Shown here: positions 3,756-43,701 of the stretch, one piece after another | Layout of the letters: every line of letters starts with the position of its first letter | Numbering within the stretch: position 1 is the stretch's first letter | Source: Bdellovibrionota bacterium | GTDB lineage: Bacteria > Bdellovibrionota_C > UBA2361 > CAKMMH01 | Reading direction: 5' to 3' | Assembly (NCBI GenBank): GCA_050952645.1 | Contig: JBMNLI010000010.1 | Coordinates: 160,001-224,000, forward strand | Length of the DNA stretch: 64,000 bases | The notes under the pieces: model-generated | Seen by the model: only the letters and a program-made list of their open reading frames with translations | Databases searched by the model: none | What the model was told of the DNA's origin: nothing | Position numbers and translations under genes: made by a program

Positions 3756-4424
3756 ATGAATACTGCAAAAACAAATACAGCAAAAATAAATACAGCAAAT
3801 ATAAATACTGCTAAAATTTTTAAACACACCGAAGACTTATCGCTATGCAATGCTAGTTCAAAAGAAAGAGTTCTTGCTGCCGCTTTAAAATTATTTGTAG
3901 GTCAAGGTTATTTTAATACGAATATTCCAGACTTAAGCAAAGAGAGTAGATGTAGCGTAGGTTCAATTTATCATCACTTTAAGAATAAAGAAGAAATAGC
4001 AAAAGCACTTTATGATTTATGTATATCAATTTTTAGAAAAGAGCTAGAAAAATCGATCTCAGGTATAACGGACACCGAAGAGTTTATAAAAAAATTAGTT
4101 AAAGCATTTCTAAGATTTTCTGAAGTTAATGTTCAAACCTCTAAATATATCTGGCTTTGTCGTCATAGTGAATTTTTAGATGGGCTTATTATGAGACCTA
4201 CGACATTAGGCTTTGATAATTTTGGAAGAATGCTTACAAGAGTTTTAAAGCAAGGAATAAAAGAAAATAAGATACGTGCCTTAAATGCTAATATCATTTG
4301 GAGTATTATTTTTGGAATTCCTTTAGAATACGTAAGAGATTGGCTAGATGGCTACAACAAAATTGCTCCATCAAAAGTAGCAGATGAGATTGCAGATGCT
4401 TGTTGGCGAGCATTAAAAATATGA
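3756..4424 (+). CDS. TetR/AcrR-family transcriptional regulator
   Basis: LAAALKLF...GY..T.I..L......SVGSIYHHFKNKEEI HTH. Confidence 0.92.
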   Translation: MNTAKTNTAKINTANINTAKIFKHTEDLSLCNASSKERVLAAALKLFVGQGYFNTNIPDLSKESRCSVGSIYHHFKNKEEIAKALYDLCISIFRKELEKSISGITDTEEFIKKLVKAFLRFSEVNVQTSKYIWLCRHSEFLDGLIMRPTTLGFDNFGRMLTRVLKQGIKENKIRALNANIIWSIIFGIPLEYVRDWLDGYNKIAPSKVADEIADACWRALKI

Positions 4425-4478
4425 ATTATAAAAAAAAAGGTTTTAAAACGATAATTAAAAAATAACAAGAATATCATA

Positions 4479-5987
4479 ATGGACAATATTTACACACTTA
4501 GCGTTTTCTTTATAGTATTTAGTATTTTACTAATTTTCTTTACTATATCTAATTGGACTTTAAGTAGGACTAAAAGCACTAAACTAAAAAATCTAGAAGA
4601 AGAGTTAAAAAAAACATCTTCCCTTAAATTTACGAAACACTTAATAAAAAACCGCGATAAAAACATATACTCTACCTACATCTACATTATAATTATAAGC
4701 TTTTGTCTTGGCGTTTGTTTATATAAAATACTAAACCTTACATCGCAATATTTTTTAAAAGATTCACTAAACCCCTTATTTTTAAACTTTAAATTAGCAC
4801 TTATCTTTCCTATAACTTCAATTATATTTTTAAGCGTGATGATTTTTATAATCGATTTATTAAAAGGCATATCTTCCTTTAATGCTGAAAAAACATTAAC
4901 TATTATATCACCAGTATTATACATATTTTGCAAGCTTCTCGCCCCTATTCCAGTAGTTATAATAAATATAAATAATAAAATTTTGCAAAGTTTGGGCAAA
5001 GCAACCACAAAAAGATCTCCTACTAGCATGCTTTCGCAAAAAGAGATTGAAGCTCTTTTAGAAGAAAGCACACAAAATGGTCTAATAGAAGACGAAGAAA
5101 AAGAACTTATAAAGGGCGTTATAAATTTCTCAGACACTACCGTAAGAGAAATAATGATTCCACGCCATAAAATTGCAGCGGTAGAAATTGATGATGAAAT
5201 CTTAGAAGTGTCAAAAATATTTTCAAGTGAAGGATTTAGTAGGTTAGTAGTCTATGCAAAAGAGCTAGACGATGTAAAAGGTATGGTTTTAGCAAAGGAC
5301 GTTTTAACTTACACATCAAATGAAAACCATGATATAGAAGCTTTAAAAAAACCTATAAAAACTCTTATGAGGCAAGCATATTTCGTAAGAGAAAACAAAC
5401 AAATAGATTCTCTTTTGCAAGAATTTAGAAAACAAGGAATCCATTTAGCGGTAGTTTTAGATGAACACGGTGGCGTTGAGGGCATTATTACTATCGAAGA
5501 TTTATTAGAAGAAATAGTTGGGGATATCATGGATGAGCACGACGTGCTTGAACAAAAGCAAAGCGAGCCAGACGTAATCGAAAGCAAAGAGGGAGTTATT
5601 ATCGTTTCAGGAGCACTGTCTATACATGATTTTAACGAACACCATAAACCAACGCTTCCAGAGGGAGAATATGAATCTATAGCAGGTTTTATGCTAAAAA
5701 TGTTTTCTAAAATGCCTCAAAATGGAGAAAATTTTGAGTATAATAACCATTTATTTATAGCGGCTAAAGTCGATAAATATAAAATAGATAAAATTAAAAT
5801 AGTAGCACTTCCAAAGCTAGAACTAGAAAATAAAGAAAAACTAGAAGATAAAAAAGAGCAAGAACAAGATAAAGATACAGAAAAAGATAAAAATAAAGAG
5901 CAAGAACAAGCCAAAAAAGAGCAAGAAAAAGAACAAGAACGTAAAGAAAAAGAACAAGAACAAGAAGATAAAAAACAGGGAAAATAA
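4479..5987 (+). CDS. HlyC/CorC-family (CNNM-CBS-CBS-CorC) transporter-associated protein with acidic/basic tail
   Basis: N-terminal TM region, VREIMIPR, FSRL, VLDEHGGVEGIITIEDLLEEIVG. Confidence 0.9.
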   Translation: MDNIYTLSVFFIVFSILLIFFTISNWTLSRTKSTKLKNLEEELKKTSSLKFTKHLIKNRDKNIYSTYIYIIIISFCLGVCLYKILNLTSQYFLKDSLNPLFLNFKLALIFPITSIIFLSVMIFIIDLLKGISSFNAEKTLTIISPVLYIFCKLLAPIPVVIININNKILQSLGKATTKRSPTSMLSQKEIEALLEESTQNGLIEDEEKELIKGVINFSDTTVREIMIPRHKIAAVEIDDEILEVSKIFSSEGFSRLVVYAKELDDVKGMVLAKDVLTYTSNENHDIEALKKPIKTLMRQAYFVRENKQIDSLLQEFRKQGIHLAVVLDEHGGVEGIITIEDLLEEIVGDIMDEHDVLEQKQSEPDVIESKEGVIIVSGALSIHDFNEHHKPTLPEGEYESIAGFMLKMFSKMPQNGENFEYNNHLFIAAKVDKYKIDKIKIVALPKLELENKEKLEDKKEQEQDKDTEKDKNKEQEQAKKEQEKEQERKEKEQEQEDKKQGK

Positions 5988-5999
5988 GAATAAAAAATA

Positions 6000-6078
6000 G
6001 GCTCTTCACGTTTTAAGGTAGGTTTTAGACCTTAAAATTAGTATCACTCACCTCGACGAAGCACAAAAGAAAATTGAC
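6000..6078 (-). mobile_element. Partial copy (one end plus internal segment) of the TIR-bounded MITE-like element
   Basis: GGCTCTTCACGTTTTAAGGTAGGTTTTAGACCTTAA is the reverse complement of the right end of the 39.8-40.5 kb copies, and internal homology continues to ~6078. Confidence 0.8.
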
Positions 6079-6311
6079 TTTAAAGAAATTTTAGAACTAA
6101 AAATTTTTAAACTAAAAAAGTAGCGACAAAAAACTTTTTAAAAACTTATTAAAAATCTTTTAGTTAGCCGCCTTGTAAGCCATTATTAAAACAAAAACTG
6201 AAACCTTTTAAATAAAAACTCATCTTATTTTTACAGAAGTTCTTATCATCTCTAAGGATTTCTTTTACGATTTTAATCTAAAGGTTCTTTTTATAATAGA
6301 GGCGTAAAATT

Positions 6312-7151
6312 ATGGCAAAAGAAAAATTAAGTAAAAAAATAGAAAAAATTTCAACCGACAGTAAGCAAGGAAAATCAAAACAAGCAAAATCTTCATTAAA
6401 AATAAGCAAATCTGTAGTGCCTAATAAGGTTGAGGTTTCAAATAAGAAAAGCTATAAGAAGAGTTATAAGATAGATCTGCGCATACTTCCCCCTACAAAC
6501 CTAGGGCCCTTTGCGATATCTGGGCTTGCGGTTGCGCCAGCTATTATAAAATTGTGTAAAGTAAAGAAGATCGATGTTATAGGTATTATAGATAATTTCC
6601 AAGGTGATTTTTTAGATAGGCTTCAAAAACTAAGCTTCGACTATCCACTTACGATTTTGCCAGCTATCGATTTACAAATAAAAGTGGATAAGTATGAGGA
6701 TATAATTTTAACTTGTTTTTTTGAAAGTTCTGAAACATCATCGACCATTAAGGATTTTTTAAATTTATTAGAAGTGCCATCGTCTTGCTATGGGAAAGAG
6801 GCTTACCCAGTTAAATTGCCATTAGATATTATATTAGAACATTTAGAAGCGTTTGATGGGTTTGCTATTCCAAGTAGGGTAGACAAAACTCCTAATAGAA
6901 AATGCGCCATTCCTATTTTAGTAGAAAAATATGGTTTTAGGACGTTTGAGGTAGTGTATCAAGACGACACGAAAGCGTTATTTAAAAAACTATGGCCTAA
7001 AGAGCACTTTAATATCTTTAGTTTCTCAAATGCAAATGCGTTAGCTCAAGTTGGGAACAGAGCCGAAAAGATTAAACTAGCTGAACTAAATTTTTCAGGC
7101 ATCAAAAACTTTATGATGAGAAGCGATGCTATATCTTTTGATATAAACTAA
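6312..7151 (+). CDS. PHP-domain-like protein lacking the metal-binding histidines
   Basis: DLRILPP / IGIIDNF / ILPAIDL / IPSRVDK align with PHP DLHxHT / AITDHN / PGxE / IPAH motifs. Confidence 0.6.
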   Translation: MAKEKLSKKIEKISTDSKQGKSKQAKSSLKISKSVVPNKVEVSNKKSYKKSYKIDLRILPPTNLGPFAISGLAVAPAIIKLCKVKKIDVIGIIDNFQGDFLDRLQKLSFDYPLTILPAIDLQIKVDKYEDIILTCFFESSETSSTIKDFLNLLEVPSSCYGKEAYPVKLPLDIILEHLEAFDGFAIPSRVDKTPNRKCAIPILVEKYGFRTFEVVYQDDTKALFKKLWPKEHFNIFSFSNANALAQVGNRAEKIKLAELNFSGIKNFMMRSDAISFDIN

Positions 7152-7162
7152 ACAAATTATTT

Positions 7163-7244
7163 AGTTCTTTAATACGCTTTAAGTGAACCGATTAAGACGG
7201 CAAAAAATCTATTTAACTAGAATAGCTTAAAACGTGAAAGAGCC
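7163..7244. mobile_element. Degenerate short copy of the MITE-like element
   Basis: AGTTCTTTAATACGCTTTAAG ... CTTAAAACGTGAAAGAGCC ends, between convergent genes. Confidence 0.65.
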
Positions 7245-7264
7245 GTTTTTTAATATATAACGCC

Positions 7265-10200
7265 TTAAACAAAATCAACATTTACGCTTGCAAAGTTTTG
7301 TTCTAATTCATCGCTAAAATCGTCAGTTGCCGATACGTTTATATTATTACTAGAGATGTCTTTTAATTGTAATAAAACCCTTTCATCATCTAAATTAAGC
7401 ATTATCTTTAATGGACAATTCCCCTCGTTTTTTCTTACTATCTCTTTAAAATCCTTTTTCTTACTCCTAAACTCTTCTAAATCATCGATAGTAATAATAA
7501 CTGAGCTAGCTTTGCCCCTTCTAACCTCAGATAACACCTTTGCCTCACTAGCTATAAATGTAGTCCTATTTTCCGTTATATCAAGCTTCCCTGATACCAA
7601 TAAAGGCTCTTCCCTTTCTAAAGATTCTCCAATCTTTCTATAAGCATCAGGCCAAACAAAAGTTTCTATCGAACCCGTGTCATCTTCTAATAAAAAATTA
7701 GCATACCTCTCCCCTTTCCTAGTGTTTTTTAATTTAAGAAACGTTACGACACCCGCAAGAGAAATGGAATTTACATTTTTAGGAGGCTTCTCTTTTGCTA
7801 CATTTATACTTATTACATTCAACTTTTTTAACAACATTTTATACTTATAAAGTGGATGCCCAGAAATATAAAAACCTAATGCTTCCTTTTCTAAAGATAA
7901 CAACACATTACTTGAAAACTCTAGCATATTACTTCTTTTTCTCTCTATGGTATAAGAGCCTTCACAAAAATCAAAAAGAGAAACCTGCTCAGCATCTTTT
8001 TCTTTTTGAATAGCAGAAGCTTGCTTTAAAACGAAATCTAAAATCATAAGATTCTCATTTTTACTAACCCCTGAAAAATCGAATGCTCCAGATTTTATTA
8101 AATTCTCTAATACTCTCTTATTTAAAGCACTAACTGGAACCCTTAAAACTAAATCCTCTAAATCTTTATACTCACCACACTTTTCTCTCTCTTCAATAAT
8201 AGCTAAAACGGCTTTTTCACCTACCGCCTTTATCGCGGAAAGCCCGAACCTAATCTTTCCTGCATTGACAGAAAAATTCGCATAACTCTTATTCACATCG
8301 GGAGGTAAAATCTTTATCCCATGCTTTTTACACTCATTAAAATTCTTCAAAACCTTGTCCGTATCATCCGCCTCATGGCTCATCACAGCAGCCATAAACT
8401 CTACTAAATAATGCGCCTTTAAATACGCCGTCTGATACGTAATTAAAGCGTAAGCCGCCGAATGGCTCTTATTAAAACCATACCTAGCAAATGTTTCCAT
8501 TTGTGAAAATACAGTTTCAGCTACTTTTTTACTAATATTGTTAGAAACACAACCTTTTATAAAGGCAGGCTTCTGCTCTGCCATTTCTTCTGCTATCTTT
8601 TTACCCATCGCACGCCTTAAAAGATCTGCTTCGCTTAGAGTAAAATTAGCTAGCGTTCTTGCGATTTGCATTATTTGCTCTTGGTAAATCATAATGCCAT
8701 AAGTATCTTTTAAAATATCCGCAAGCAAAGGATGCTCATACTCTACCTTTTCTCTTCCATGCTTTCTTTCTATATACCTATCTACCATTCCAGCATCTAA
8801 GGGACCGGGGCGATAAAGCGCATTTAACGCCACTAAATCCTCAAACCTAGTAGGCGCAATTCTAACCGTAATATCTGTAATCCCTGAAGATTCTAATTGA
8901 AACACACCTACTGTATCTCCAGCTCTTAAAAGTTCAAAAACTTTCTCATCATCTAGCGGTATATGTGAAAGGTCAACGGTCTCCCCTCTTGAGCCCTTTA
9001 TAATATCTAAAGCCGTTTTTATAACCGTTAAAGTTTTTAAACCTAAAAAGTCAAACTTTACTAAACCTACTTTCTCTACATACTTCATCGAGTATTGCGT
9101 AACGTCGTGCCCGAACTTATCGATCATTAGTGGCACTATATCACTTAACGGTCTATCTGCGATTATAACACCTGCCGCATGCGTCGAAGCGTGACGCGTC
9201 AACCCCTCTAGCTTCATCGCATGTCGCATCAGTTCTTGCCCGTCATTTTCAGCATACTCTTTTAGTTTAGGCTCTAATTCTAACGCTCTTTTAATATCAA
9301 CCTCGGCTCCTTGCCTTTGATTTGGAATAAGACTTGCTACTCTATCGGTTTCTTGGTAGCTTACTCCTAAAACTCTACCCACATCTTTTATAGCATTTTT
9401 AGCTTTTAACGTTCCAAATGTCGCTATTTGTGCTACGTTATCTTTACCATATTTATTAGACACATACTCTAAAACTTTCTCACGCCCTTGAACGCAAAAA
9501 TCCACATCTATATCTGGAAGCGTTATGCGGTCGGGATTTAAAAATCTTTCAAAAAGCAAATCATGCCTTATAGGATCTATATCAGTTATTTGCATAGCAT
9601 ACGCAACTAAAGACCCTGCGCAGCTTCCACGCCCTGGCCCTACGGGAACTCCATTTTGTTTTGACCATACAATAAAATCTGAAACTACTAAAAAATACCC
9701 TGCAAACCCCATGCTATCTATTAGCGATATTTCTCTTTCTAGCCTATCTATATAAACTTTTTCTAACTCTTTAGTGTAATCCTTACTCTTACTTATAATT
9801 TCTAATCTCGCCTTTAAGCCATTTCTAGCTTGCTCAGACATTATCTCTATAAAAGGACGATTTTTTAATTCAGGATCATCACTCTTATACACAGGCATAT
9901 AGTGAATAGAAAAATTAAATTTCGTTTCACACATATCTGCAATTTTTACAGTATTTGCCATCGCCTCTTTTATAGGATAATCCTTAAAATCTTCTAGAAT
10001 TTCTTTAGTGCTTCTTAAATGAAGATCAAACCCTTCAAATGACATTCTGTTTTCATCTGAAAGCTGTTTTTGTGTCGCTATGCACATTAAAATTTCTTGA
10101 GACATACTATCTTCTTTTTCTAAATAGTGGGCATCACAAGTAGGAATAATCGGGATATTATATTCTTTTGAAAGTTCAAATATTCGTTTATTTGTCTCTT

Positions 10201-10771
10201 GTTGCTCTCGATTTTGATGAGGCTGAATCTCTAGGTAAAATCTATCTTTAAAAGTCGTGTTATAAAAGTCTAGCGTGTTTTTAAGTTCTTGCTCTTTGCC
10301 GGCCCTGATAAGAAAGGGAATCTCTCCTTGCAAACAAGCACTACTAATAATAAGCCCTTCGTTATATTTTGATAAAAGTTCCCAATCGACTCTCGGTTTA
10401 AAATAAAAACCCTCTTTATAAGATAAACTAGTAAGCTTACATAAATTTCTATACCCAGCATCATCCATCGCAAGAGCGATTATATGAAACGTTCCACCGC
10501 CACCATTTGCTAAAGTTTTTCTTTCAAACCTATCTTTTGGGGCTACATAAAGCTCACAACCTATAATAGGTTTAACATTAAAATCTTTTGCAGTTATATA
10601 AAACTCTACCGCTCCATGCATATTCCCATGGTCTGTCATAGCGACAGCTTTTTGATTAAAACTTTCCGCTTTTCTTAATAAATCATCTAGTTTTATAGCG
10701 CCATCTAGCAAACTATAATGAGTGTGAACGTGTAAATGAACAAAATTTATATCTTCTTGCACAAAAAACAT
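7265..10771 (-). CDS. dnaE: DNA polymerase III alpha subunit
   Basis: FVHLHVHTHYSLLDG PHP, GPGRGS, PDIDVDF, KFDFLGL, YGFNKSH, C-terminal OB fold. Confidence 0.98.
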   Translation of the reverse strand: MFFVQEDINFVHLHVHTHYSLLDGAIKLDDLLRKAESFNQKAVAMTDHGNMHGAVEFYITAKDFNVKPIIGCELYVAPKDRFERKTLANGGGGTFHIIALAMDDAGYRNLCKLTSLSYKEGFYFKPRVDWELLSKYNEGLIISSACLQGEIPFLIRAGKEQELKNTLDFYNTTFKDRFYLEIQPHQNREQQETNKRIFELSKEYNIPIIPTCDAHYLEKEDSMSQEILMCIATQKQLSDENRMSFEGFDLHLRSTKEILEDFKDYPIKEAMANTVKIADMCETKFNFSIHYMPVYKSDDPELKNRPFIEIMSEQARNGLKARLEIISKSKDYTKELEKVYIDRLEREISLIDSMGFAGYFLVVSDFIVWSKQNGVPVGPGRGSCAGSLVAYAMQITDIDPIRHDLLFERFLNPDRITLPDIDVDFCVQGREKVLEYVSNKYGKDNVAQIATFGTLKAKNAIKDVGRVLGVSYQETDRVASLIPNQRQGAEVDIKRALELEPKLKEYAENDGQELMRHAMKLEGLTRHASTHAAGVIIADRPLSDIVPLMIDKFGHDVTQYSMKYVEKVGLVKFDFLGLKTLTVIKTALDIIKGSRGETVDLSHIPLDDEKVFELLRAGDTVGVFQLESSGITDITVRIAPTRFEDLVALNALYRPGPLDAGMVDRYIERKHGREKVEYEHPLLADILKDTYGIMIYQEQIMQIARTLANFTLSEADLLRRAMGKKIAEEMAEQKPAFIKGCVSNNISKKVAETVFSQMETFARYGFNKSHSAAYALITYQTAYLKAHYLVEFMAAVMSHEADDTDKVLKNFNECKKHGIKILPPDVNKSYANFSVNAGKIRFGLSAIKAVGEKAVLAIIEEREKCGEYKDLEDLVLRVPVSALNKRVLENLIKSGAFDFSGVSKNENLMILDFVLKQASAIQKEKDAEQVSLFDFCEGSYTIERKRSNMLEFSSNVLLSLEKEALGFYISGHPLYKYKMLLKKLNVISINVAKEKPPKNVNSISLAGVVTFLKLKNTRKGERYANFLLEDDTGSIETFVWPDAYRKIGESLEREEPLLVSGKLDITENRTTFIASEAKVLSEVRRGKASSVIITIDDLEEFRSKKKDFKEIVRKNEGNCPLKIMLNLDDERVLLQLKDISSNNINVSATDDFSDELEQNFASVNVDFV

Positions 10772-11087
10772 CCTTTAATAAAACAAACTCTAATATAACT
10801 CTAATATAAAAGGATAAACTAGAATAAGTTTAACCGCAACAATGTAAGAAAAAGAAAATAAAGATATTTTTTAAAAAAAAGTTTCTTTTAATAACTACTT
10901 TAAATTAAAGATAATTTTACTCGAAAAAATAAATTTTACGCTAAGCTTTATATACAAAACTTTTACAAAAAATTACAAAAATTAAAGCAACGATTCTAAA
11001 AAAATATCATTTTACTTATATACATAAAAAAACATACTAAAAAAATATTCAAAAAAAAAAATACAAAAAAATAGGAGAATAGTTAAT

Positions 11088-11300
11088 ATGAAAAACAATG
11101 ATAAAATCAATTTAGAAGAGTTTATAAATAGCCAAATTGAAACTGTGGAAATTACTATCGGAGACTTAATCGAAGCTATTTCAAATATTTCATTAGGCAT
11201 TTGTAATAATAAAGAAGAGGCTTATAAATTAACGTCTGAAAGAATATCTGCAATCTTAGCTCAAAACGATAAAGACCTTGAGAGCATAGAAACAAAATAA
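11088..11300 (+). CDS. Small hypothetical protein
   Basis: AGGAG RBS before ATG; 70 aa with helical amphipathic character; first gene before the ABC pair. Confidence 0.65.
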   Translation: MKNNDKINLEEFINSQIETVEITIGDLIEAISNISLGICNNKEEAYKLTSERISAILAQNDKDLESIETK

Positions 11301-18220: not shown

Positions 18221-19120
18221 TTATTCATCTACTGCTTCAACTAATGATTTTGCTGGTGCAAATCTAACACGGTTTTTAGCCTTTATATGAACTACCTCGC
18301 CAGTAGATGGGTTTCTTCCTAATCTAGCTTTTGTTTTTCTTATATAAAGTTTGCCAATACCTAAAAATGGAACCTTATATCCTTTAGAAAGAGCATCTAC
18401 TATAAATGAAGTGATATCATCACATATTTCTTTAGCTTGAGTTCTTTTTTCTAATCCACAAAAAGCTTTAACATGATCATAAAATTCTAATTGAGTATAG
18501 CTAAGCGTCGACTCATTGTTAGGTTTCATAGCAGACGTCATTTTCGCATTTTCTTCTTTTTCCACAGCCTTAGTTGCCTTAGTAGTTTTTGTAGCCTTTG
18601 CTTGTTTCTTATCGCTTACTACGCTACTTTTAGCTTCTTTAGTTTTAGTTTCTTTCGTTTTGGCTTCTTTCTTAGAAGCTACTTTTTTATTCTCTGCTTT
18701 TTTAGGCTCTGTTTTTTTAGTTTCAGTTTTTTTAGCTGTCCCTTTCTTAGCGGTAGTTGTAGCTTTTGCTTTAGTAGTAGTTTTAGAAGCGGTAGCTTTC
18801 TTTGCTACTTTAGTAGCTTTAGTAGAAACTTGTTTTTTTGCTTTATCTGCCGTAGTTTTATCTTTAGTAGCCTTACTAGTTTTTTTAGCAACACTTTCTT
18901 TTTTAGCACTAGTAGTTTTAGCTGTAGCCTTTTTAGTCGTAGTTTTCTTAGGCTCTGCTTTCTTAGCAGTAGTTTTCTTATCGACTACTTTTTTCTCTGT
19001 AGCTTTCTCTGCATTCTTTTTAGCCGTAGTTTTTTTAGTCGTCGTTTTCTTTTCTGCTACTTTTTTCGTTGTAGTTTTCTTCTCTGCTTTCTCTTTTTTA
19101 GTCGAAGTTGACTTTGCCAT
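18221..19120 (-). CDS. HU/IHF-family DNA-binding protein with long Lys/Ala/Thr-rich N-terminal tail
   Basis: C-terminal GIGKL...RLGRNPSTGE...RVRFAPAKSL HU fold; start MAKST at 19120 follows AGGAG. Confidence 0.88.
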   Translation of the reverse strand: MAKSTSTKKEKAEKKTTTKKVAEKKTTTKKTTAKKNAEKATEKKVVDKKTTAKKAEPKKTTTKKATAKTTSAKKESVAKKTSKATKDKTTADKAKKQVSTKATKVAKKATASKTTTKAKATTTAKKGTAKKTETKKTEPKKAENKKVASKKEAKTKETKTKEAKSSVVSDKKQAKATKTTKATKAVEKEENAKMTSAMKPNNESTLSYTQLEFYDHVKAFCGLEKRTQAKEICDDITSFIVDALSKGYKVPFLGIGKLYIRKTKARLGRNPSTGEVVHIKAKNRVRFAPAKSLVEAVDE

Positions 19121-19328
19121 TTTAGCTCCTTTATAAAATAACAAGATAAAAGATGTATGTAATTATAATAAAAATAACACTACTAAAAAAAAATAACACT
19201 ATTGCTATAAATAATAAAAAATTGATATATTTACATAGATATATTTACATAGTGTTTAATGTCTTTTTACTTAAAAACTATACACAAACTAATTTTACTA
19301 AAATCACAAATTTATACAACTTATAAAA

Positions 19329-33350: not shown

Positions 33351-34205
33351 TTACGGTTGTCGTTTTGGCACTACTACTTTTGGTATTTCGTCAGTGCCAG
33401 CTGCCTTACCCATAACATAGGCTTTCTGTTCTCCATTTACTGACTTAAAGAAGACTGTTTCTGGCTTACCCATACCAAGCTTATTTTCCCAGTATTTTTT
33501 AATATGATCGGAAAATTGCATACAAATGCCAGTGCAGATATCTTTTATCTGCCCAAGTACTTTGTCCGCTTTATCTATCGGCTCTTTTATCTTATCTGCA
33601 GCTTTTCGCGAGTTCTCTTCTATTATTCCCAAACCCCAAACAGAGTCTTCGCAATGAAGCTTTATTTCTGCAACGATATACAGAATCTCAGGGTCGTTCC
33701 ACAAACTCGCTTCTAGTTGCTCCCTTGCAGACCGTCTTTTAGGCACGCCTTCAGACATTCTAATTTCAAGGCTCTCAGCAACTTTAAACAATTTCGATGA
33801 TTTCTCAGTCTCGCAATCTTTTTTTACTACGTTATCATCGTTCTCAATACCTATAGCTTGTATCTCATCTATCTTATCTCGATAGATGGCAATACCCTTT
33901 TGAATAAAGCCAAGCCTTTCAAGCAAAGACCTATCCAAATACATAGTATCCTTGATAGGCTCTCTCTTCACCATTCTAGCATAGATAAGCGTCAGATGAT
34001 TATAGTTAACTTGTTCTTGCGTCAGTGGAAAACCATCCGCTTGAGCATCAGCCTTATTATGAGCGTTATCCTGCGGGACAACTCTCTCTACCTTCTCTCC
34101 GCCTTTAGGGGCAGGATTTCCTTTTTGCCCAAAGCAAGTCTGCAAAGTGCCAAAGGAAATAATGCACACCCAAAACCAAACAGCAACATGTTTTTTTTTA
34201 CACAT
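33351..34205 (-). CDS. Exported hypothetical protein
   Basis: Likely start MCKKKH at 34205 after GAGGAGG; signal-peptide-like N-terminus; visibly higher GC than flanks. Confidence 0.7.
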   Translation of the reverse strand: MCKKKHVAVWFWVCIISFGTLQTCFGQKGNPAPKGGEKVERVVPQDNAHNKADAQADGFPLTQEQVNYNHLTLIYARMVKREPIKDTMYLDRSLLERLGFIQKGIAIYRDKIDEIQAIGIENDDNVVKKDCETEKSSKLFKVAESLEIRMSEGVPKRRSAREQLEASLWNDPEILYIVAEIKLHCEDSVWGLGIIEENSRKAADKIKEPIDKADKVLGQIKDICTGICMQFSDHIKKYWENKLGMGKPETVFFKSVNGEQKAYVMGKAAGTDEIPKVVVPKRQP

Positions 34206-34417
34206 AACCTTCCTCCTCTCTTCTAGAAATTCCTTGAAAAAGAGAGCAGATGAAAACCATAAAAGAATTTGCAAGTCAATTAAATCTTAACTGTAAATCC
34301 TAAAAAAACCGTTCTTTAAAGAACACAACATAAATTTTATTATACTGAAAATAAGCTTTTTAGACAAGAAAAATATATAATAAGAACACTTAAAAATTAG
34401 CACTTAAAAACATCTTT

Positions 34418-37400
34418 CTATTTTCTTTGACAAGTCCTAGTAGCGCCATTGCAACTAGCCCCTACACATAATTCACAAGTTAGACCTTCACAACATATCG
34501 TACCGCCTTGAAAGTTATCTCCTTCATAAAAACAAGACATCCCTTCACTATAACAGGAGCCAAAGCCACAGCAATATTTATTATCGTACTGGCATAAATA
34601 ATACTTATATTGCGTATTATGCTTACTACAAGAATTAGCATCACAATCTTCTCTTATACACCCAGGATGTATATCTTCACAAACATTATTTTTACATTCT
34701 TTTCCATCTTCGCAACATACGCCATTACATAAATCTTGAGAGCAACAATATTGTTCGTTATTATAATTATATATTCTACCAGTTTTGCAACACGCTTTTT
34801 TACCGCTACTATCTGTATACTCTGTTTCATCACTAGAACAACCACACCTAGCGCCATCACCATCACCTATACATCTATTTACAGGACAACATTGCCCTTC
34901 ACCGCCACACATTATATCTAGCTCTCCAGGGCAACACACTCCATCAGCTCCATAATTGCTACCCTGATTTTTAGTTTCTGTATAATTTGGAGCATCTACA
35001 CTACAACATTGACCTAAATACTTATTATAATCTACATTTGTAGGGCAGCAAGCAAATATCTCTGTTTCCCAATTGCTATATGCGCAATACTCTCCAAGTT
35101 TACAACAAGAAGAGCCACACGATACAGCTGTATCATCTGTAAGTGGATCGCAACAAACTTCTATTAGTTCTCCTGTGAAACTATTCGTAACACTCCCAGC
35201 ATGATAATCGTTTGGCTTAGCACAACAACCCTCTGTTCCATCTTCATTTGTATATACACCACCATCACAACAAGCTTGAGTGCCATCGTCTTCTTTATTA
35301 TAAACTTTACCATCTCCACAGCATAAGTAAGCACTAGCTGCGAAATCGCTACTATAATTTCCCGGCTTCTCTTCTAGTTTAGGCACTAATCTTGCACATT
35401 TATTAGCATCACAACATGTGCCACCACAATGAACTTGCCCCTCTTTTCCGCAACACGTTTGTGCTGGCAACTCTTCAAATTCCACTATCCCAGTTTCTTC
35501 ATTTATTCCAACTTTAAAAGATCTTATTGTGCCTTTTATATCAGTGCAATATTGATTTTCTTCACAACACGCACTACGACAGAGAAGTTTTTCTTGGTCA
35601 TCGCAACAAACTTCATCACCTTGCATATCATAACCTGTAAACTTAGGAGCATCATCTGGGCAACAAACTGTCTTAGGATAACTTTCGCCTTCATCTTCTA
35701 CAATCTCTCCCGTTTCATTTCCGACACTACCTTCAGGGCATTCCGAATCACATACAAAAGATTTGTTATCATATACATCGATTACATACCCTGCCGTCTC
35801 TCCATCTTCACAGCATAATTTTTCATCATTATTTCCTTCAAAATAATTATCTTCTTTACAACAGCTATCTCCTGGTTCTCCATTTTCTTTATCACAACAC
35901 CCATTGTTTTCGCCACCACTAGGATCATTTTCTCCGCTAGGGTCTAACATGCACACATAACCGCTAGGACATAAACACCCAGACACACTTAATGACGAAC
36001 TACTAGAATATTCTTCAGGATTTTCTCTAGAACTAGAAGAAGATTTAGATGACTCTAAGCTAGATTGACTACTAATATAAAAATTACTTCGAGACGAACT
36101 ACTTTTACTAGATGACGCAGACACTCTACTTAACGAAGACGAAACACTTCCTAGAGATATAGAAAAACTACTAGGTGCCGAAGAATAATTGCTAGACTTA
36201 CTAGACAATGAAGAACCACTAAACAAAGAACCGCTAGATATACTAGATACAGATGATATAACACTACTTAAGCTACTAAAAGAACTACTACTAGGCGATA
36301 AGCTTTTACTACTTAAAGAACTAGATGAACTGCTACTAGGTGATGAACTCTTACTAGAAGAGCTAGACAAACTACTCTTACTACTAGATGATAAACTAGA
36401 ACTTAAAGAGCTAGATGAGCTACTTTTACTCGAACTAGATGAACTAGAACTGCTTTTACTAGAACTACTTAATGAACTAGATGAACTGCTCTTAATACTA
36501 GCTGATGAGCTCTTGCTAGATGAAGAGCTAGATGAACTACTACTACTTGGCGATGAACTAGAACTGATTTTACTAGAACTAGGACTTAAAGAACTACTAG
36601 AACTGCTAGGTGATGAACTCCTACTAGAACTCGAACTTAAAGAACTAGAAGAGCTACTTTTACTAGATGAACTTGATAAGCTACTTTTACTTGAACTAGA
36701 TGAACTACTCTTACTACTAGACGGACTACTACTAGATGAAGAACTCTTGCTAGATGAACTACTACTAGGCGAAGAGCTCCTACTAGAACTCGAACTTAAA
36801 GAACTAGAAGAGCTACTTTTACTAGCTGAACTTGATAAGCTACTTTTACTAGATGAACTTGATAAGCTACTTTTACTTGAACTAGATGAACTACTCTTAC
36901 TACTAGACGGACTACTACTAGATGAAGAACTCTTACTAGAACTGCTTGAACTAGGGCTACTAGAAGAACTTAATGAACTACTCTTGCTACTAGAAGATGA
37001 ACTCTTACTAGAAGAACTACTCTTGCTTGAACTAGGACTTAAAGAACTACTTGACGAAGAACTCTTACTAGAGCTACTTTTGCTACTAGAACTACTACTA
37101 CTTAATGAACTAGATGAATTGCTCTTGCTACTAGAAGAAGAACTAGAACTTAAAGAACTACTAGATAAACTTAACGAACTGCTACTACTAGAACTTAAAA
37201 AGCTACTAGAAGAACTTGGCGAACTACTCTTGCTAGAACTAGAACTTTTCTTACTAGAACTACTACTACTAAGCGAACTACTAGAACTGCTAGGCGATAA
37301 TGAACTACTACTGCTAGAAGAACTAGGAGATGAGCTACTACTACTAGATGCACTGCTACTAGATAAACTGCTCCTACTAGACGATGAACTGCTAAAAGAC

Positions 37401-38186
37401 GAACTGCTACTAGACGAACTCCCCTTAGGTGAACTAGATGTATCGAAAATTTGCGCAGTCCTAAAAAAACCTACATGAAACGAATCTGCTATGAGAGGCT
37501 CATCATCTAACAACTTAAATATATCTAATATTATACCAGACTTAATAAAAATCTTCCCTCCCTTCATTGTCCTAAGTTTTATCGTCTCACTTTCTTTATC
37601 AACGGGAACAAAATCTACATATTTTTCCTTCCTCCACAAACTCCCAGGGAGTTTAGTAGTCTTTATACTATCATTATCTAATTTTATACCAGGAATTAAA
37701 ATACCATACTTAGCTATACACGGCTCCCCTCTTAACTCAAAATATTTAAAGCCTAGTTGCTTAGGTGTCGCCACCTTTTTCGATAATGCTAAATTATAAG
37801 CCGTAATCCAAAATTTACATATAGTAGGACAATCTTTAGATAGAGCTTGCACCTCAGGCACTTCGCATACTTCATCTATTTCACTTCGAGTTTTCCCCCT
37901 TATAGACTCACAATTAGGAACGTCTTTCTCTCTTAAACCGTCTAGGCAATACTCTCTTAAAGCTACCATAAAATGAGGTGAAATATCGACTACAAATTGC
38001 ACTGGTCTATTTTCTACAGCTATTAATAATCTTAGATTCCTATCATCTAAACACATCATATGAAAAACAAATACGAAAACATTCGTCACTACCCATGTAA
38101 GTACAAAATAATAAAAACAAACTATAGCCTGTTTCTGTTAAAACGCTACCACGACTCGAATGGGACTTTTTATATTTATTTTTCAT
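34418..38186 (-). CDS. Giant TadE/pilin-like-anchored, poly-Ser stalk, Cys-rich protein; 5' end frameshifted at ~38128
   Basis: ORF 34418-38089 plus upstream frame MKNKYKKSHSSRGSVLTET. Removing one base gives RGSVLTETAIVCFYYFVLTWVVTNVFVFVF. Confidence 0.65.
35990..37440 (-). repeat. Poly-serine coding tract with internal block duplications
   Basis: AGT/TCT/AGC/TCA codon repeats; blocks near 36600-36760 and 36770-36930 are near-duplicates. Confidence 0.9.
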
Positions 38187-38564
38187 CAAATTTTTATTTT
38201 GAAAGAAATTTTTAAAGAAATTTTTTAATCGACTGTTTGAGGTTAAAAGGAATTTTAACATAAGAAGATTTTTTACTTTTTTTATATATTATTTAATAAT
38301 TAAAATTCAAAAACGATGTATAGCAAACTTTCTATGATATATGCTCAAATATTTCTTAAGAAAAATCTGCTCTATAAAATTTGTCTAAAATATGAACTAA
38401 CAATATAAATTTATAATACTTACTTGCAAATAACAAGATTAACATTTTAAGAGTAAAGCAAGGCTTTTAAAAATAACCTTAAAAATACAAAGAACCAAAT
38501 TAAATAAAAATCCGATAAAATCTCTACCTTTTTAAAGATATTTTTTTAAGTTATATTTAGCTTT

Positions 38565-39800
38565 ATGGAAAATAATATACTAATTCGCAGAATAGAAAAA
38601 ATTAAAAAATCTTTAAGCAAGCTTTCTAGCAATGCTACTTTACTTTTATCGAGTGCCCCAGAAATCATAAAGTCTCGTGATATAACTTTTGATTTTAAAC
38701 AAGACACTAATTTTTATTATTTTACAAACTCACAAATAAAAAACGCTGTGCTTTTAATAAAATCAAATAGTGATGCTCCCATCTTGCTTTCACCTAGCCA
38801 AAGTAAAGAAGACATATTGTGGCATGGAGAAAGTGAGTCGGCAAAATCTTTAGCAAAAAAAATCGGTGCCGTTTACAAAGACTGTGAACTTAATGAGAAA
38901 GACATTATCTCTTATTTAAAAGAGTGCAATACTCTATGTTATAGCTCTTATAAATATTCTTTATCTAATAAAGTAGCTAAGTTTTTATTAAAAGAAAACA
39001 CTTCTACATTAGAGCGATTAAAGCTTCCATATAAATTTATAAATCAAGACTTTATAATATCACCGCTAAGACAAATAAAAGAAAAAGGCGAAATAGAAAA
39101 TATAAAAACCGCTGTAAAGATTACGCTCAATGCCATAGAGGAATTAAAAAACTTTTTACGCCCTGGGCTTACCGAACTCGAAGTTAAGCACTTTTTTGAA
39201 AATGAAATAAAAAAACAAGGAGCAAGCATAGCGTTTGATACTATTTGCGCAAGTGGTAAAAATGCAGCAACGCTTCATCACACTAGTTCTAATAAAGTGC
39301 TTAAAAAAGGAGAAATGCTTCTTATCGATTGTGGTGCTGAATATAATATGTATGCGGCAGATATTAGTAGAACGCTTCCAGTTTCTAGCACGTATTCTCC
39401 TATTCAAGAAATACTTATAAATGGAGTCAAAAAGGCTAAGCGTGATGCTATAAATAAGGCCGTTGTAGGTGCAAAATTTAAAGATGTGCAACAAGCTTCA
39501 GAGCTAGCTATTATAGAGTTATTAAAAGAGCTAAAAATTTTAAAAGGAAATAAGCTAAACATTTTAAAACAAAAATTACATAAAGAATTTTATCCTCACG
39601 GCGTTGGGCACTCTCTTGGGCTTGATACTCACGACTTAGGGAAACTTTTCGGCGATACTATTTTAAAAGAAAATATGGTTATTACGATAGAGCCCGGAGT
39701 TTATTTTAGTAAAAAGATTAACGATATCGTGCCGTGTGGAGTTAGGATAGAAGATGATATTATAATTAGAAAGAAAGAGTCTAAAGTGATAGAGTTTTAA
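38565..39800 (+). CDS. pepP: Xaa-Pro aminopeptidase (M24B)
   Basis: LIDCGAE..Y.ADISRT, HGVGHSLGLDTHD, TIEPGVY, GVRIEDD. Confidence 0.9.
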   Translation: MENNILIRRIEKIKKSLSKLSSNATLLLSSAPEIIKSRDITFDFKQDTNFYYFTNSQIKNAVLLIKSNSDAPILLSPSQSKEDILWHGESESAKSLAKKIGAVYKDCELNEKDIISYLKECNTLCYSSYKYSLSNKVAKFLLKENTSTLERLKLPYKFINQDFIISPLRQIKEKGEIENIKTAVKITLNAIEELKNFLRPGLTELEVKHFFENEIKKQGASIAFDTICASGKNAATLHHTSSNKVLKKGEMLLIDCGAEYNMYAADISRTLPVSSTYSPIQEILINGVKKAKRDAINKAVVGAKFKDVQQASELAIIELLKELKILKGNKLNILKQKLHKEFYPHGVGHSLGLDTHDLGKLFGDTILKENMVITIEPGVYFSKKINDIVPCGVRIEDDIIIRKKESKVIEF

Positions 39801-40604: not shown

Positions 40605-41786
40605 ATGATAGAAAGGAATATTTCTAATAAATTAGTAGAGCTTGCTAACCTAGTGCCCGTCATAACTATTATTGGCCCTAGGCAATCTGGGAAAACGACT
40701 TTAGTAAAAAACTCTTTTCCAGAATACAATTACGTCAATTTAGAAGATCCTGCAAATAGGATGTTTGCAAAAGAAGATTATAGAGGTTTTTTTGAAACGT
40801 ATAAAGAGCCGATAATTATAGATGAAATTCAAAGAGTGCCAGAGCTTCTTTCCGCAATACAAGTTATGGTCGATAATGATAGAAAAAAAAATGGTCGCTT
40901 TATACTTACAGGAAGCCATCAACCTAGTTTGCAAAGAGGAATTGCGCAATCCCTAGCAGGTAGAACTAGCATCTTAACCCTACTTCCTTTAAGTATGAAT
41001 GAACTTGCTAAAGAAGGACTATTAGAGAAATTATCTATCGACAAATTACTTTTAAAAGGCTTTATGCCAGAACTTTATAGAAAAGGAGCTAGAACTCCCG
41101 TCGTTTATTATCGCGACTATTTAAATACTTATGTTGAAAAAGATTTGCGAGAAATGTTAGAGATTAAAAACTTAGATAAGTTTTTAAGATTTTTAACTTT
41201 ACTTGCAGGCAGAGTTGGGCAGGTAGTAAACTTATCTTCCATGTCTGGGGATGTAGGAGTTTCATCTACGACTTTATCCGATTGGCTATCTGTGCTTGAA
41301 GCCTCTTATATAGTTTATAAATTAAAACCATATTTTTCTAATATTACTAAACAACAAATTAAGTCGCCAAAAATTTATTTTACAGAAATTGGCTTAGCAA
41401 CGTATCTTTTAGGGATAGAAACTGAAAATCAGGCAACACGAGACCCGCTACGAGGAAATCTTTTTGAAAATTTAATCGTTTCAGATATTCTAAAGTCTAG
41501 GCTAAATGAAAATCTAGACCCGAACATCTATTACCTAAGAACTGCTAAGGGGACTGAGATAGATTTAATTTTGAAAAAAAATGAAAAACTTTATCCATTT
41601 GAAATAAAATCATCGATGACGCCTAATAAATCATTTTCAAGACATCTATCATCTTTTACTAAAACACATGAGAATGCTACAAACCCTAGAATCATTTACC
41701 AAGGACAATCTTATCCGCAATTTTGCGGTGTTGAATACGTTAATTATAAAGAATTAAATAAATTAGCATCACTGTTAGCATTATAA
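40605..41786 (+). CDS. AAA_14 ATPase with DUF4143 domain
   Basis: GPRQSGKTT, IIDEIQ, LTGS, SLAGR, KSPKIYF, ENLIV, EIDLI...FEIK. Confidence 0.92.
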   Translation: MIERNISNKLVELANLVPVITIIGPRQSGKTTLVKNSFPEYNYVNLEDPANRMFAKEDYRGFFETYKEPIIIDEIQRVPELLSAIQVMVDNDRKKNGRFILTGSHQPSLQRGIAQSLAGRTSILTLLPLSMNELAKEGLLEKLSIDKLLLKGFMPELYRKGARTPVVYYRDYLNTYVEKDLREMLEIKNLDKFLRFLTLLAGRVGQVVNLSSMSGDVGVSSTTLSDWLSVLEASYIVYKLKPYFSNITKQQIKSPKIYFTEIGLATYLLGIETENQATRDPLRGNLFENLIVSDILKSRLNENLDPNIYYLRTAKGTEIDLILKKNEKLYPFEIKSSMTPNKSFSRHLSSFTKTHENATNPRIIYQGQSYPQFCGVEYVNYKELNKLASLLAL

Positions 41787-42381: not shown

Positions 42382-43701
42382 CTAGCTCTCAAGTAGCCAA
42401 GTTATAATATTTAGAGATTTTATCCCATCATAGCAAGTCTCCATGCCTGTATTTAATGAGAGAACTATTTTTTCATGATTGTCGCTAATTTTTCGCAAAG
42501 GTGCTAACTCTCTCTTACGAACTCTTTCCTCTGCCATCGATTCCGTAACTTGAATATACTGCTTGCTATCTGCTTTAGTAGCTATAAAATCTACTTCAAA
42601 ATTATCTATTTTTCCGATCGCCACATCGAAACCACGCCTTAGCAATTCAAAATAAATTACATTTTCTAAAGAGCGACCACTATCTCTATCCCTAAATCCT
42701 AAAATGAAATTTCTTAATCCTATATCGACTATATAATATTTACCAAGAGTACGAAGAAAATCTTTTCCTTTAATGTCGAATCTTTTTATTTCATAAAAAA
42801 AATACGATTCTAATAATGCACTTACGTATGCCTGAACCGTGTGGGCACTCGGCGTTCCTTTTCTTTTACCATTTTCGAGCATACCTTCATTTACGAGAAC
42901 ATTCCCTATGGAAGAAACTGAAATATTACTACCGATATTATCCGCAAGAAACATTACTATCTTTTTAAATAAAAACCAATCTGTAATTTGCCTTTGCCCT
43001 CTTATCTTCTCTCTTTCTAAAATGTCTCTTACTATTACCGTAGAGTATATACCTTCTAATAAAACTAGCGCTTTTTCTTGATCTAATCCGACATCTACAA
43101 TTCCTGGCATTCCACCAAAACGCATATATGCTTTAAATAAATCTTTAAGTTCATAATGTTCTTTATTTTCATCATAAACTTGTTTTCTTATATCCCCTAA
43201 AGCACTCCTTGTTTCTCTCATTTCAAAACCATGAAAATATAAAAACTCGCTAAATGAAAGTGGAAACATTTTAATTTCTATGCATCTTCCAGATAAATAA
43301 GTTGCATACTCCGAGGAAAGTAGATATGCGTTAGAACCAGTAATGTAAATATCACAATTAAAATCCACTCTAAATGAGTTAATCGCATCTTCCCATTTTG
43401 GAACACGCTGAATCTCATCGAAAAACAAATACATTCTCTTATTTGGAACGATAAGTTTTTTCACGTATTCATAAAGCTCATCGCTATTCATTTTTTTAAA
43501 TACATAAGACTCAAAGTTCATCTTGACAATTTGTTTATCTGAAATGCCATTGTCTTTTAAATAAGAAATCATTAATTTAAGCAAGCTAGATTTTCCGCAT
43601 CTTCTTATACCAGTTATCACCTTTACTAGCTCTGTATCTTTAAAAGCTATTATCTTATTTAAGTATAAGTCTCTTTTTTTAAGTTTACGTGTATTATTCA
43701 T
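42382..43701 (-). CDS. AAA_14 ATPase with DUF4143 domain
   Basis: GIRRCGKS, FFDEIQ, ITGSNA, KYYIVD.G, LENVIY.EL, EVDFIA...YIQV. Confidence 0.92.
   Translation of the reverse strand: MNNTRKLKKRDLYLNKIIAFKDTELVKVITGIRRCGKSSLLKLMISYLKDNGISDKQIVKMNFESYVFKKMNSDELYEYVKKLIVPNKRMYLFFDEIQRVPKWEDAINSFRVDFNCDIYITGSNAYLLSSEYATYLSGRCIEIKMFPLSFSEFLYFHGFEMRETRSALGDIRKQVYDENKEHYELKDLFKAYMRFGGMPGIVDVGLDQEKALVLLEGIYSTVIVRDILEREKIRGQRQITDWFLFKKIVMFLADNIGSNISVSSIGNVLVNEGMLENGKRKGTPSAHTVQAYVSALLESYFFYEIKRFDIKGKDFLRTLGKYYIVDIGLRNFILGFRDRDSGRSLENVIYFELLRRGFDVAIGKIDNFEVDFIATKADSKQYIQVTESMAEERVRKRELAPLRKISDNHEKIVLSLNTGMETCYDGIKSLNIITWLLES

Follow-up and report, generated by a model that had tools for sequence, protein, structure and literature searches.

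The gene described here lies in a 64,000-nucleotide stretch of a Bdellovibrionota genome (positions 160001-224000 of contig C10 of genome G000, written G000:C10:160001-224000; the genome measures 1.95 Mb, with 31% GC and 17 contigs), and this whole stretch is referred to below as the window. The gene is annotated as an open reading frame (ORF) of 1223 codons, and we consider, with a probability of roughly 60%, that it belongs to a family of giant TadE-type minor pilins restricted to this lineage, as a full-length copy whose leader has been shifted out of frame, so that the copy would be silent unless the frame is restored. Relatives that carry the leader in frame support a TadE-like leader hidden behind the break, and the break itself is observed in independent DNA.

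Gene Structure and Reading Frames

The annotated ORF occupies 34418-38089 (all features of the gene are on the minus strand), starts at a GTG, encodes 1223 amino acids (aa) and is the longest ORF that can be called. Upstream, in a different frame, is a leader frame of 72 codons (38043..38261) that reads MLKFLL...MKNKYKKSHSSRGSVLTETGYSLF... from its first ATG at 38261, has a second ATG at 38186 (MKNKYKKSHSSRG...), reaches ...KKSHSSRG|SVLTET before the break, and closes at a TGA past the point where the pilin frame is left. This leader frame keeps 90-94% amino-acid identity in four other copies of the gene. The main frame resumes one base after the break as AIVCFYYFVLTWVV... and runs into the 1223-aa ORF, with 1239 open codons in all. 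Around the break the minus strand reads ...acagaaacaggctatag..., where the GG is at 38128-38129, and a single four-letter step at this GG joins both frames as MKNKYKKSHSSRGSVLTETAIVCFYYFVLTWVVTNVFVFVFHMM... The sequence-only reading had proposed that removal of one G of 38128-38129 would connect the upstream frame to the ORF in a protein of about 1255 aa; reading through the break reproduces this, the length from the second ATG being 19 + 13 + 1223 = 1255 aa. The window copy as it stands lacks a continuous frame from leader to body, owing to one extra base at 38128-38130, whereas such a frame is present in a paralogue at C17:323835-327158 of the same genome.

The features of a class III (prepilin) signal are present across the two frames, namely a basic leader, Gly at -1, Glu at +5 and then about 20 hydrophobic residues (AIVCFYYFVLTWVVTNVFVFVF), the last in the other frame. 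The predicted cleavage motif, R-G|S-V-L-T-E (38133..38153), was read from the sequence and lines up with the G|xxxxE leaders found in those relatives that pass the Pfam TadE model. The hydrophobic alpha-1 helix that follows (38063..38128) belongs to the main frame and contains the annotated GTG, and homology to the TadE helices of relatives runs through it. The 1223-aa annotation hides the identity of the protein because the called start falls within this helix, which is of practical use for annotation. Across the break is a patch of 17 nt, ACAGAAACAGGCTATAG (38122..38138), that is one base longer than the in-frame ...CAGAGATGGCTATAG of two copies on contig C17.

Three regions make up the body of the protein. 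Residues 1-216 of the ORF form an N-terminal globular module (37442..38089) of mixed composition, in which alignments show conserved C..FW..A and LPG motifs. A serine stalk of 484 residues follows (217-700; 35990..37441), 75% of it Ser and built of degenerate tandem repeats, and then a cysteine-rich head of 523 residues (701-1223; 34421..35989), 14% Cys, with 72 Cys and 22 CC pairs. These values agree with the earlier description of a globular domain, about 480 Ser-rich residues and about 520 CC-rich residues. The protein would require export because its 72 Cys occur in CC motifs, and the leader frame is the sole source of a signal. A promoter and terminator scan returned 15 promoter-like sites against 17.3 expected, which is uninformative. 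On the opposite strand, antisense to the Ser stalk, is a Leu/Glu-rich ORF of 429 codons (36189-37478, plus strand); this is a by-product, or mirror image, of the AGT/TCT-rich Ser codons and is no evidence for a gene.

Relatives With the Leader in Frame

Pfam searches with the 1223-aa ORF and the 72-aa leader frame returned no relevant family, and the TadE label rests on homology to relatives that do pass, because the clade itself is without a Pfam match. When the phylum's 124 genomes were searched with the N-terminus of the in-frame C17 protein, matches were found only in G000, in G036 (same genus) and in G037 (same family). The G036 protein (37% identity) begins MLKKINGSTIIEFALALSVFF..., reads NG|STIIEFAL... 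and scores 26.3 bits against Pfam TadE (PF07811, gathering cut-off 22.9 bits), whilst the G037 protein (26% identity) begins ...WQYGAVLVEFALVSLIF..., reads YG|AVLVEFAL... and scores 23.1 bits. Both have Thr-rich stalks after the homologous N-module, and the stalks of the orthologues are Thr/Pro-rich where that of the window is Ser. An intact gene of 1301 aa in G036 has the leader, the N-module, Cys modules, Thr/Pro stalks and a head homologous to that of the window (BLASTP 4e-28); the window head is also homologous to cassettes in its own genome.

A non-circular hidden Markov model (HMM) was built from eight relatives outside the window clade. It matched the C17 protein with model positions 3-227 on residues 31-269 (88.2 bits), covering the leader, and the main frame of the window with positions 17-227 (74.1 bits), where the match starts at 'AIVCF', near the break and 13 codons before the GTG. 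As the match begins upstream of it, the annotated GTG lies inside the ancestral pilin helix. The sequence-only reading had expected that homologues would not begin at this GTG, and no relative does; its TadE-like leader is likewise supported, as judged from two in-frame paralogues and from the G036 and G037 orthologues that pass Pfam TadE.

The family is rare. A profile of five N-modules gave 14 matches at E<=0.001 among 1.84 billion representative proteins, and among the 11 listed, all seven family members with an N-terminus begin with a basic leader, a Gly and a hydrophobic helix; the three weakest listed matches are ordinary TadE proteins of 149-203 aa that match in the helix only. Within the phylum, six of the 124 genomes match profile A3 at E<=1e-5, those outside family f1 in the helix only. 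None of 102 pattern matches was confirmed when a single protein was searched against genome contigs, nor any of 510 when alignment A4 was searched against metagenome contigs. The family does not appear to be of the KilN/TadG type, with no PF13400 match on it and no pilin neighbours in the window; PF13400 is found elsewhere in the genome, in the C9 Tad locus. As for synteny, the copy at G036:C43 adjoins smc, and the smc gene of G000, at C14:38667, is not beside a leader-bearing copy.

Genome G000 carries a second, divergent and intact member on contig C12, of 1304-1331 aa depending on start choice. It reads G|EVLVS, scores 14.3-20.1 bits against TadE, below the cut-off, and has the 1301-aa gene as its syntenic orthologue in G036. 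This C12 member (L020, G000 C12:26000-42000) adjoins fliG and is flanked by GT9 heptosyltransferase-like, Glyco_trans_1_2/DUF3880, hexapeptide acyltransferase and GT2 genes, and the fliG and GT9 neighbours are conserved in G036 (L047, C41:1-9000). The glycosyltransferase neighbours offer a lead for glycosylation of the stalk. In the same order, the genome G056, of another family, encodes a Cys-rich TadE protein of 1732 aa (36.6 bits; L048, C2:386000-398000, 3934-9132), directly followed by a gene for a 650-aa VWA protein with a pilin-like N-terminus (9161-11113), and this is another giant Tad minor-pilin pair.

Reality of the Frameshift

The break could be compared with independent data in Logan contigs, which were aligned on window positions 37600-38600 from runs X1/X2, X3 and X4, and then X7 (studies P1/P2, P3, P4 and P7); runs X1/X2 look like one data set filed twice. 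A 112-nt contig of X1/X2 is identical to the window over 38057-38168, a 71-nt contig of X3 crosses the break with zero differences to the window form, and a 122-nt contig of X4 crosses it with three substitutions and no gap. Run X7, from a further study, shows the window form with zero differences and a short form as well. The form one base shorter at 38130 is also present in X1/X2 and X3, there together with the substitutions of the C17 form. The unique flank at 38263-38600 was matched by contigs with 0-2 differences and no gaps. RNA runs X21 and X23 gave 0 contigs here, from which nothing follows on expression. The frameshift is thus real DNA and no assembly error. The sequence-only reading had treated the break as a slip to be "repaired", and this does not hold, as it is seen in independent contigs and is common to five of the seven leader-bearing copies in the genome. 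For the same reason the window copy probably makes no pilin as it stands.

Three alternatives concern how the break is read. That the extra base is a sequencing or assembly error, with the gene intact in the organism, has a chance close to negligible: the contigs are too short to place either leader form at a particular locus, and cannot phase the patch to the window, but they match the window form without a gap in all of the runs above, three substitutions, in addition to the indel, separate the long form from the short one, and the identical patch is found at five loci with different flanks, besides the gapless match of the unique flank. A programmed +1 ribosomal frameshift, or other recoding, might instead bypass the break and allow the window copy to be expressed as a full prepilin of 1255-1280 aa. 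The identical patch kept in five copies, the intact downstream frame of 1239 codons, and an overlap of about 30 codons with U-rich runs (TTT TTA TTA TTT T), at which a +1 slip would still give G|SVLTE and the hydrophobic helix, speak for this. Four of the five patch copies are, however, otherwise broken by further frameshifts, stops, truncation or insertion, which fits decay and no conserved recoding signal; the orthologues and two paralogues are plainly in frame, inspection by eye showed at the site neither a stop nor a hungry codon preceded by a Shine-Dalgarno-like element, and the site is without a homopolymer that would permit transcriptional slippage. We therefore regard recoding as quite improbable. 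Finally, the annotated GTG could be genuine, the protein being made without a signal and the 72-codon frame upstream being unrelated. A start codon is present and the ORF is the longest callable, yet homology to relatives reaches 13 codons further upstream, no in-frame paralogue or orthologue begins at the GTG, MTNVFVFVFHMM is without a charged n-region, and a head of 72 Cys is implausible in the cytoplasm, so that we give this idea practically no credence.

Paralogues and Gene Conversion

About 11 loci in G000 carry pieces of the window gene, and seven of these have the leader. By DNA alignment the extra-base patch is present in five of the seven, the window included, whilst in the two C17 copies the sequence is (A/T)CAGAGAT-GGCTATAG, shorter by one base, so that leader and body share a frame. 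Exact-word counts in the genome are five for the patch and one for each of the two in-frame forms. The copy at C17:323835-327158 is the only one in the close clade that is open from leader ATG to stop. Its protein of 1107 aa begins MLKF...KKSHSSRGSILTEMAIVCFYYF..., with the junction region reading ...KKSHSSRGSILTEMAIVCFYYFALTWVV... The roughly ten further loci of the close clade are frameshifted, truncated or leaderless, and copies other than the window and the intact C17 gene have further frameshifts, stops, truncations or an inserted ORF. Apart from its leader break, the window copy is the best preserved of those that are not intact. Leaderless head cassettes are arranged in tandem downstream of the intact C17 gene (C17:313414-322152).

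The copies are mosaic, with gene conversion in short tracts evident in the heads as well as in the frameshift patch. In a comparison of heads by sliding 60-nt identity, the window is 93-100% identical to the copy at C10:332064 outside an island at head nt 720-900 (approximately 35090..35269), within which identity to that copy falls to 63-70% and identity to the C17:120727 cassette is 87-92%. When the leader of the frameshifted copy at C10:335725 is compared with that of the in-frame copy at C17:327158, 260 of 261 positions agree from -150 to +110, ahead of the patch, and 261 of 265 beyond it, in contrast to 23 of 26 within it. The patch forms an island of difference in otherwise identical leaders, and so a short tract containing it has passed from one copy to another. 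Two features of cassette systems are thus found here: one intact copy beside silent or partial copies, and segmental conversion between copies. Both leader forms occur in the short contigs of X1/X2, X3 and X7, where the locus is not assignable.

Some other copies have features of their own. The copy at G000 C6:22740-25801 is split by an inserted ORF of 442 codons, a putative group II intron reverse transcriptase to judge from its motif. At G000 C14:19228-22536 (plus strand) is a leaderless open frame of 1107 codons that starts in the middle of the N-module, has a head that matches the head of the intact C17 gene at 99.7% identity, and adjoins a cluster of four N_methyl (T4a) minor pilin genes.

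Proposed Function and Alternatives

The genome encodes the machinery that such a pilin would need. Of its two Tad loci, one is on C9 and the other on C12. Both encode a TadZ-like ATPase, RcpC, one CpaF-type ATPase and a pair of T2SSF proteins, to which the C9 locus adds a PF13400 protein; two Flp pilins are found beside both Tad loci. Genome totals are seven T2SSE ATPases above cut-off, nine N_methyl pilins and two secretins, with one A24 peptidase (PilD-type) that has the bacterial N-terminal domain. The sequence-only reading had suggested a look for tad genes and paralogues in the genome, and both are present, as these two Tad loci and the ~11 family loci. Two further loci with orphan Tad-type pilins may be noted, one for a TadE protein of 832 aa without a stalk (L021:9198-11696, G000 C3) and, on C5, one for an overlapping pair of a 209-aa TadE protein and a 305-aa Cys-rich protein (L022:7068-8605), the latter having a leader of Asp/Asn/Ile/Lys repeats and an N-terminus like that of a pilin.

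In the in-frame relatives, the single PilD-type prepilin peptidase of the genome would cut after RG, and the hydrophobic N-terminal helix would anchor the protein in, or at the tip of, a Tad pilus, with the serine stalk, possibly glycosylated, holding out a disulphide-rich head. The window copy is most likely a silent, full-length reserve cassette, to judge from its sequence, and may remain so unless recombination with an in-frame leader restores the frame. Cleavage, pilus incorporation, the disulphide-bonded and adhesive nature of the head, glycosylation of the stalk, silence of the copy and its reactivation by gene conversion are all steps that we infer, as is the attachment to host or prey, with O-glycosylation, that the sequence-only reading proposed.

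The predicted structure is consistent with this scheme in outline. For the C17 copy, the mature N-module was modelled by AlphaFold2 from ten sequences with a pLDDT of 77.5 and a pTM of 0.75. The model opens with a helix of 44 residues (2-45), which is followed by a helical insert that extends to residue 122 and by seven strands. In its general layout, an N-terminal helix followed by a sheet, the model would be pilin-like. A PDB sequence profile of the N-module gave no match at E<=1. Complex prediction for the mature N-module with the C5 TadE protein and its 305-aa neighbour gave 0.33, 0.00 and 0.01 over the runs, no evidence either way. For the head (residues 701-1223), none of 2672 candidates, proteins of 672-2141 aa, reached E<=0.001, and the ESM Atlas returned no usable match. 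Galaxin-like di-cysteine repeats (PF24748) gave a weak match on the G036 orthologue (20.3 bits, E 5.5e-4, below the cut-off of 28 bits), the likeness being tandem CC-containing repeats and a resemblance only; the window protein has no Pfam match at E<=0.1, PF24748 included.

Several results weigh against a TadE-type pilin, or against a silent one. The window N-terminus read through the break matches 0 Pfam families at E<=10, which disappoints the earlier expectation of a TadE match there; it gives no match to PF07811 or to N_methyl (PF07963), and the in-frame C17 protein and its pieces likewise find no Pfam or NCBIfam family at E<=10. An hhalign comparison with the genome's own 209-aa TadE covers 23 columns only, leader and helix, at a probability of 61. 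The Foldseek search that the sequence-only reading had proposed for the N-terminal domain found nothing at E<=0.001 with the N-module model. VIA-align gave a best Z of 4.8, with no chain at Z>=5, and pilins or pseudopilins in 10 of the 50 listed rows (Z 3.4-4.2) are within noise. The A24 family search found no dedicated TadV in the genome, and the genome searches for A24, T2SSE, N_methyl, TadE, Flp and Secretin had no match inside the window, so that there is no operon link to tad genes here. The ratio dN/dS among three N-modules (about 0.59-0.70 on 13-22 changes) is uninformative and decides nothing. Lastly, the frame of 1239 codons stays open at 31% GC while four of the five copies with the same patch are otherwise broken, which would fit either a frame that was lost very recently or a copy that is still read in some way. 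With regard to TadV, B. bacteriovorus is described as processing Flp1 by PilD with TadV absent (bioRxiv 10.64898/2026.07.08.737194).

These results bear on a different role for the leader, in which the class III signal would serve export or membrane anchoring only, and the product would be a stalk adhesin on the surface of the cell, or a surface protein that depends on Tad/T2SS, outside the pilus filament. The family searches place no tad gene beside the window copy, the fold searches lack a confident pilin match, and the protein exceeds the 860-residue extreme given in a survey of N_methyl modular pilins (Raynaud 2021, PMC8179133). On the other hand, the TadE leaders of relatives pass Pfam, the giant Cys-rich TadE protein of G056 adjoins a VWA protein with a pilin-like N-terminus, the usual make-up of TadG, the model has a long N-terminal helix and then a sheet, and large distal domains are described on Tad tip pilins (Herrou 2025, PMC12075869). 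A role outside the filament seems to us unlikely on balance. An extension of the reserve-cassette reading is that the ~11 cassettes, by swapping heads and the 17-nt patch, vary the tip protein of a Tad pilus of this uncultured bacterium in the manner of pilE/pilS, the window reserve being switched on by one short conversion tract that changes what the tip binds. We offer this tentatively, as a possibility on the weaker side.

Comparison With Known Systems

Two studies describe Tad minor pilins that make up exchangeable tips whose distal domains vary (Herrou 2025, PMC12075869) and modular pilins that are widespread (Raynaud 2021, PMC8179133). The principle is therefore already known. What this family adds to it, as new variants, is its size, its stalk, a head without a family match, an N-module that is rare and an organisation in cassette-like copies; in the literature searched, neither a TadE pilin with a Ser stalk nor cassettes of Tad pilins were described.

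The closest likeness is to the TadE/TadF/TadG and KilL/KilM/KilN "Tip" complexes of the Tad (Kil) pili of Myxococcus xanthus (PMC12075869). The family shares with these a leader of TadE type, in which Gly is at -1 and a hydrophobic alpha-1 helix follows, a distal domain that is large and variable and is predicted here to be disulphide-rich, several paralogous versions per genome, genes that are often away from the loci of the tad machinery, and a carrier lineage with two Tad loci. It differs from the Kil tips in that its proteins, of 1107-1332 aa, have pilin module and head separated by a stalk of 480 residues, of Ser or of Thr/Pro; its large subunit has a TadE (PF07811) and not a TadG (PF13400) N-terminus, no L/M/N triplet lies beside it, its copies are for the most part broken and mosaic, and the N-module is rare, with the 14 matches mentioned above. 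PilB of Streptococcus sanguinis (PMC8179133) is similar to what is proposed here in having a small pilin module with a grafted functional module, an expected location at the tip and a role in adhesion. Its class III signal is of the N_methyl kind, its linker is short and its functional module is a VWA module, in place of which the present family has a TadE-type signal, a giant low-complexity stalk and a head that matches no family.

The serine-rich repeat adhesins of Gram-positive bacteria, such as GspB and Fap1, present their binding region away from the cell on a long O-glycosylated Ser-rich stalk, and are exported by the accessory Sec system and anchored by sortase. The window protein resembles these in its very long Ser-rich stalk, whereas a prepilin-type leader takes the place of accessory Sec and sortase. 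In the pilE/pilS system of Neisseria, one intact expression copy is accompanied by many promoterless or broken partial copies and varied by segmental gene conversion. One intact copy, broken copies and segmental conversion are found here too, although the protein is a Tad minor pilin and not a T4a major pilin, and the cassettes are whole genes of 3-4 kb or heads.

The family would take the idea of exchangeable tips to an extreme, as a TadE-type pilin of 1100-1300 residues whose stalk is mucin-like and whose head matches no family, maintained as a single live gene and a store of mosaic copies. If the copies are used, recombination could vary the binding end of a Tad pilus, and the family would provide a handle on how type IV filaments display very large cargo. 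This may matter for predation, as exchangeable Tad tip pilins are reported to set which prey a predatory bacterium can kill (PMC12075869) and the Tad machinery to be required for prey invasion by Bdellovibrio (bioRxiv 10.64898/2026.07.08.737194).

Neighbouring Genes

Just downstream of the window copy is a companion gene (33351..34274, minus strand) for a protein of 284-307 aa with a hydrophobic N-terminus. The protein is without a Pfam family, and the homologues found are paralogues from its own genome only. The gene recurs downstream of several copies of the family, is also found at G000 C10:327811-331917 and C12:90800-91669, and on C10 is repeated in tandem, with about five copies or pieces in the array.

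Elsewhere in the window, a gene at 18221-19144 (minus strand) encodes a HU-type domain (Bac_DNA_binding, residues 220-305) behind an N-terminal extension of about 200 residues, for which overlapping ORFs on the other strand hint at low complexity. Near the pilin gene, two AAA_14/DUF4143 ATPase genes lie close together at 40605-41786 (plus strand) and 42382-43701 (minus strand).

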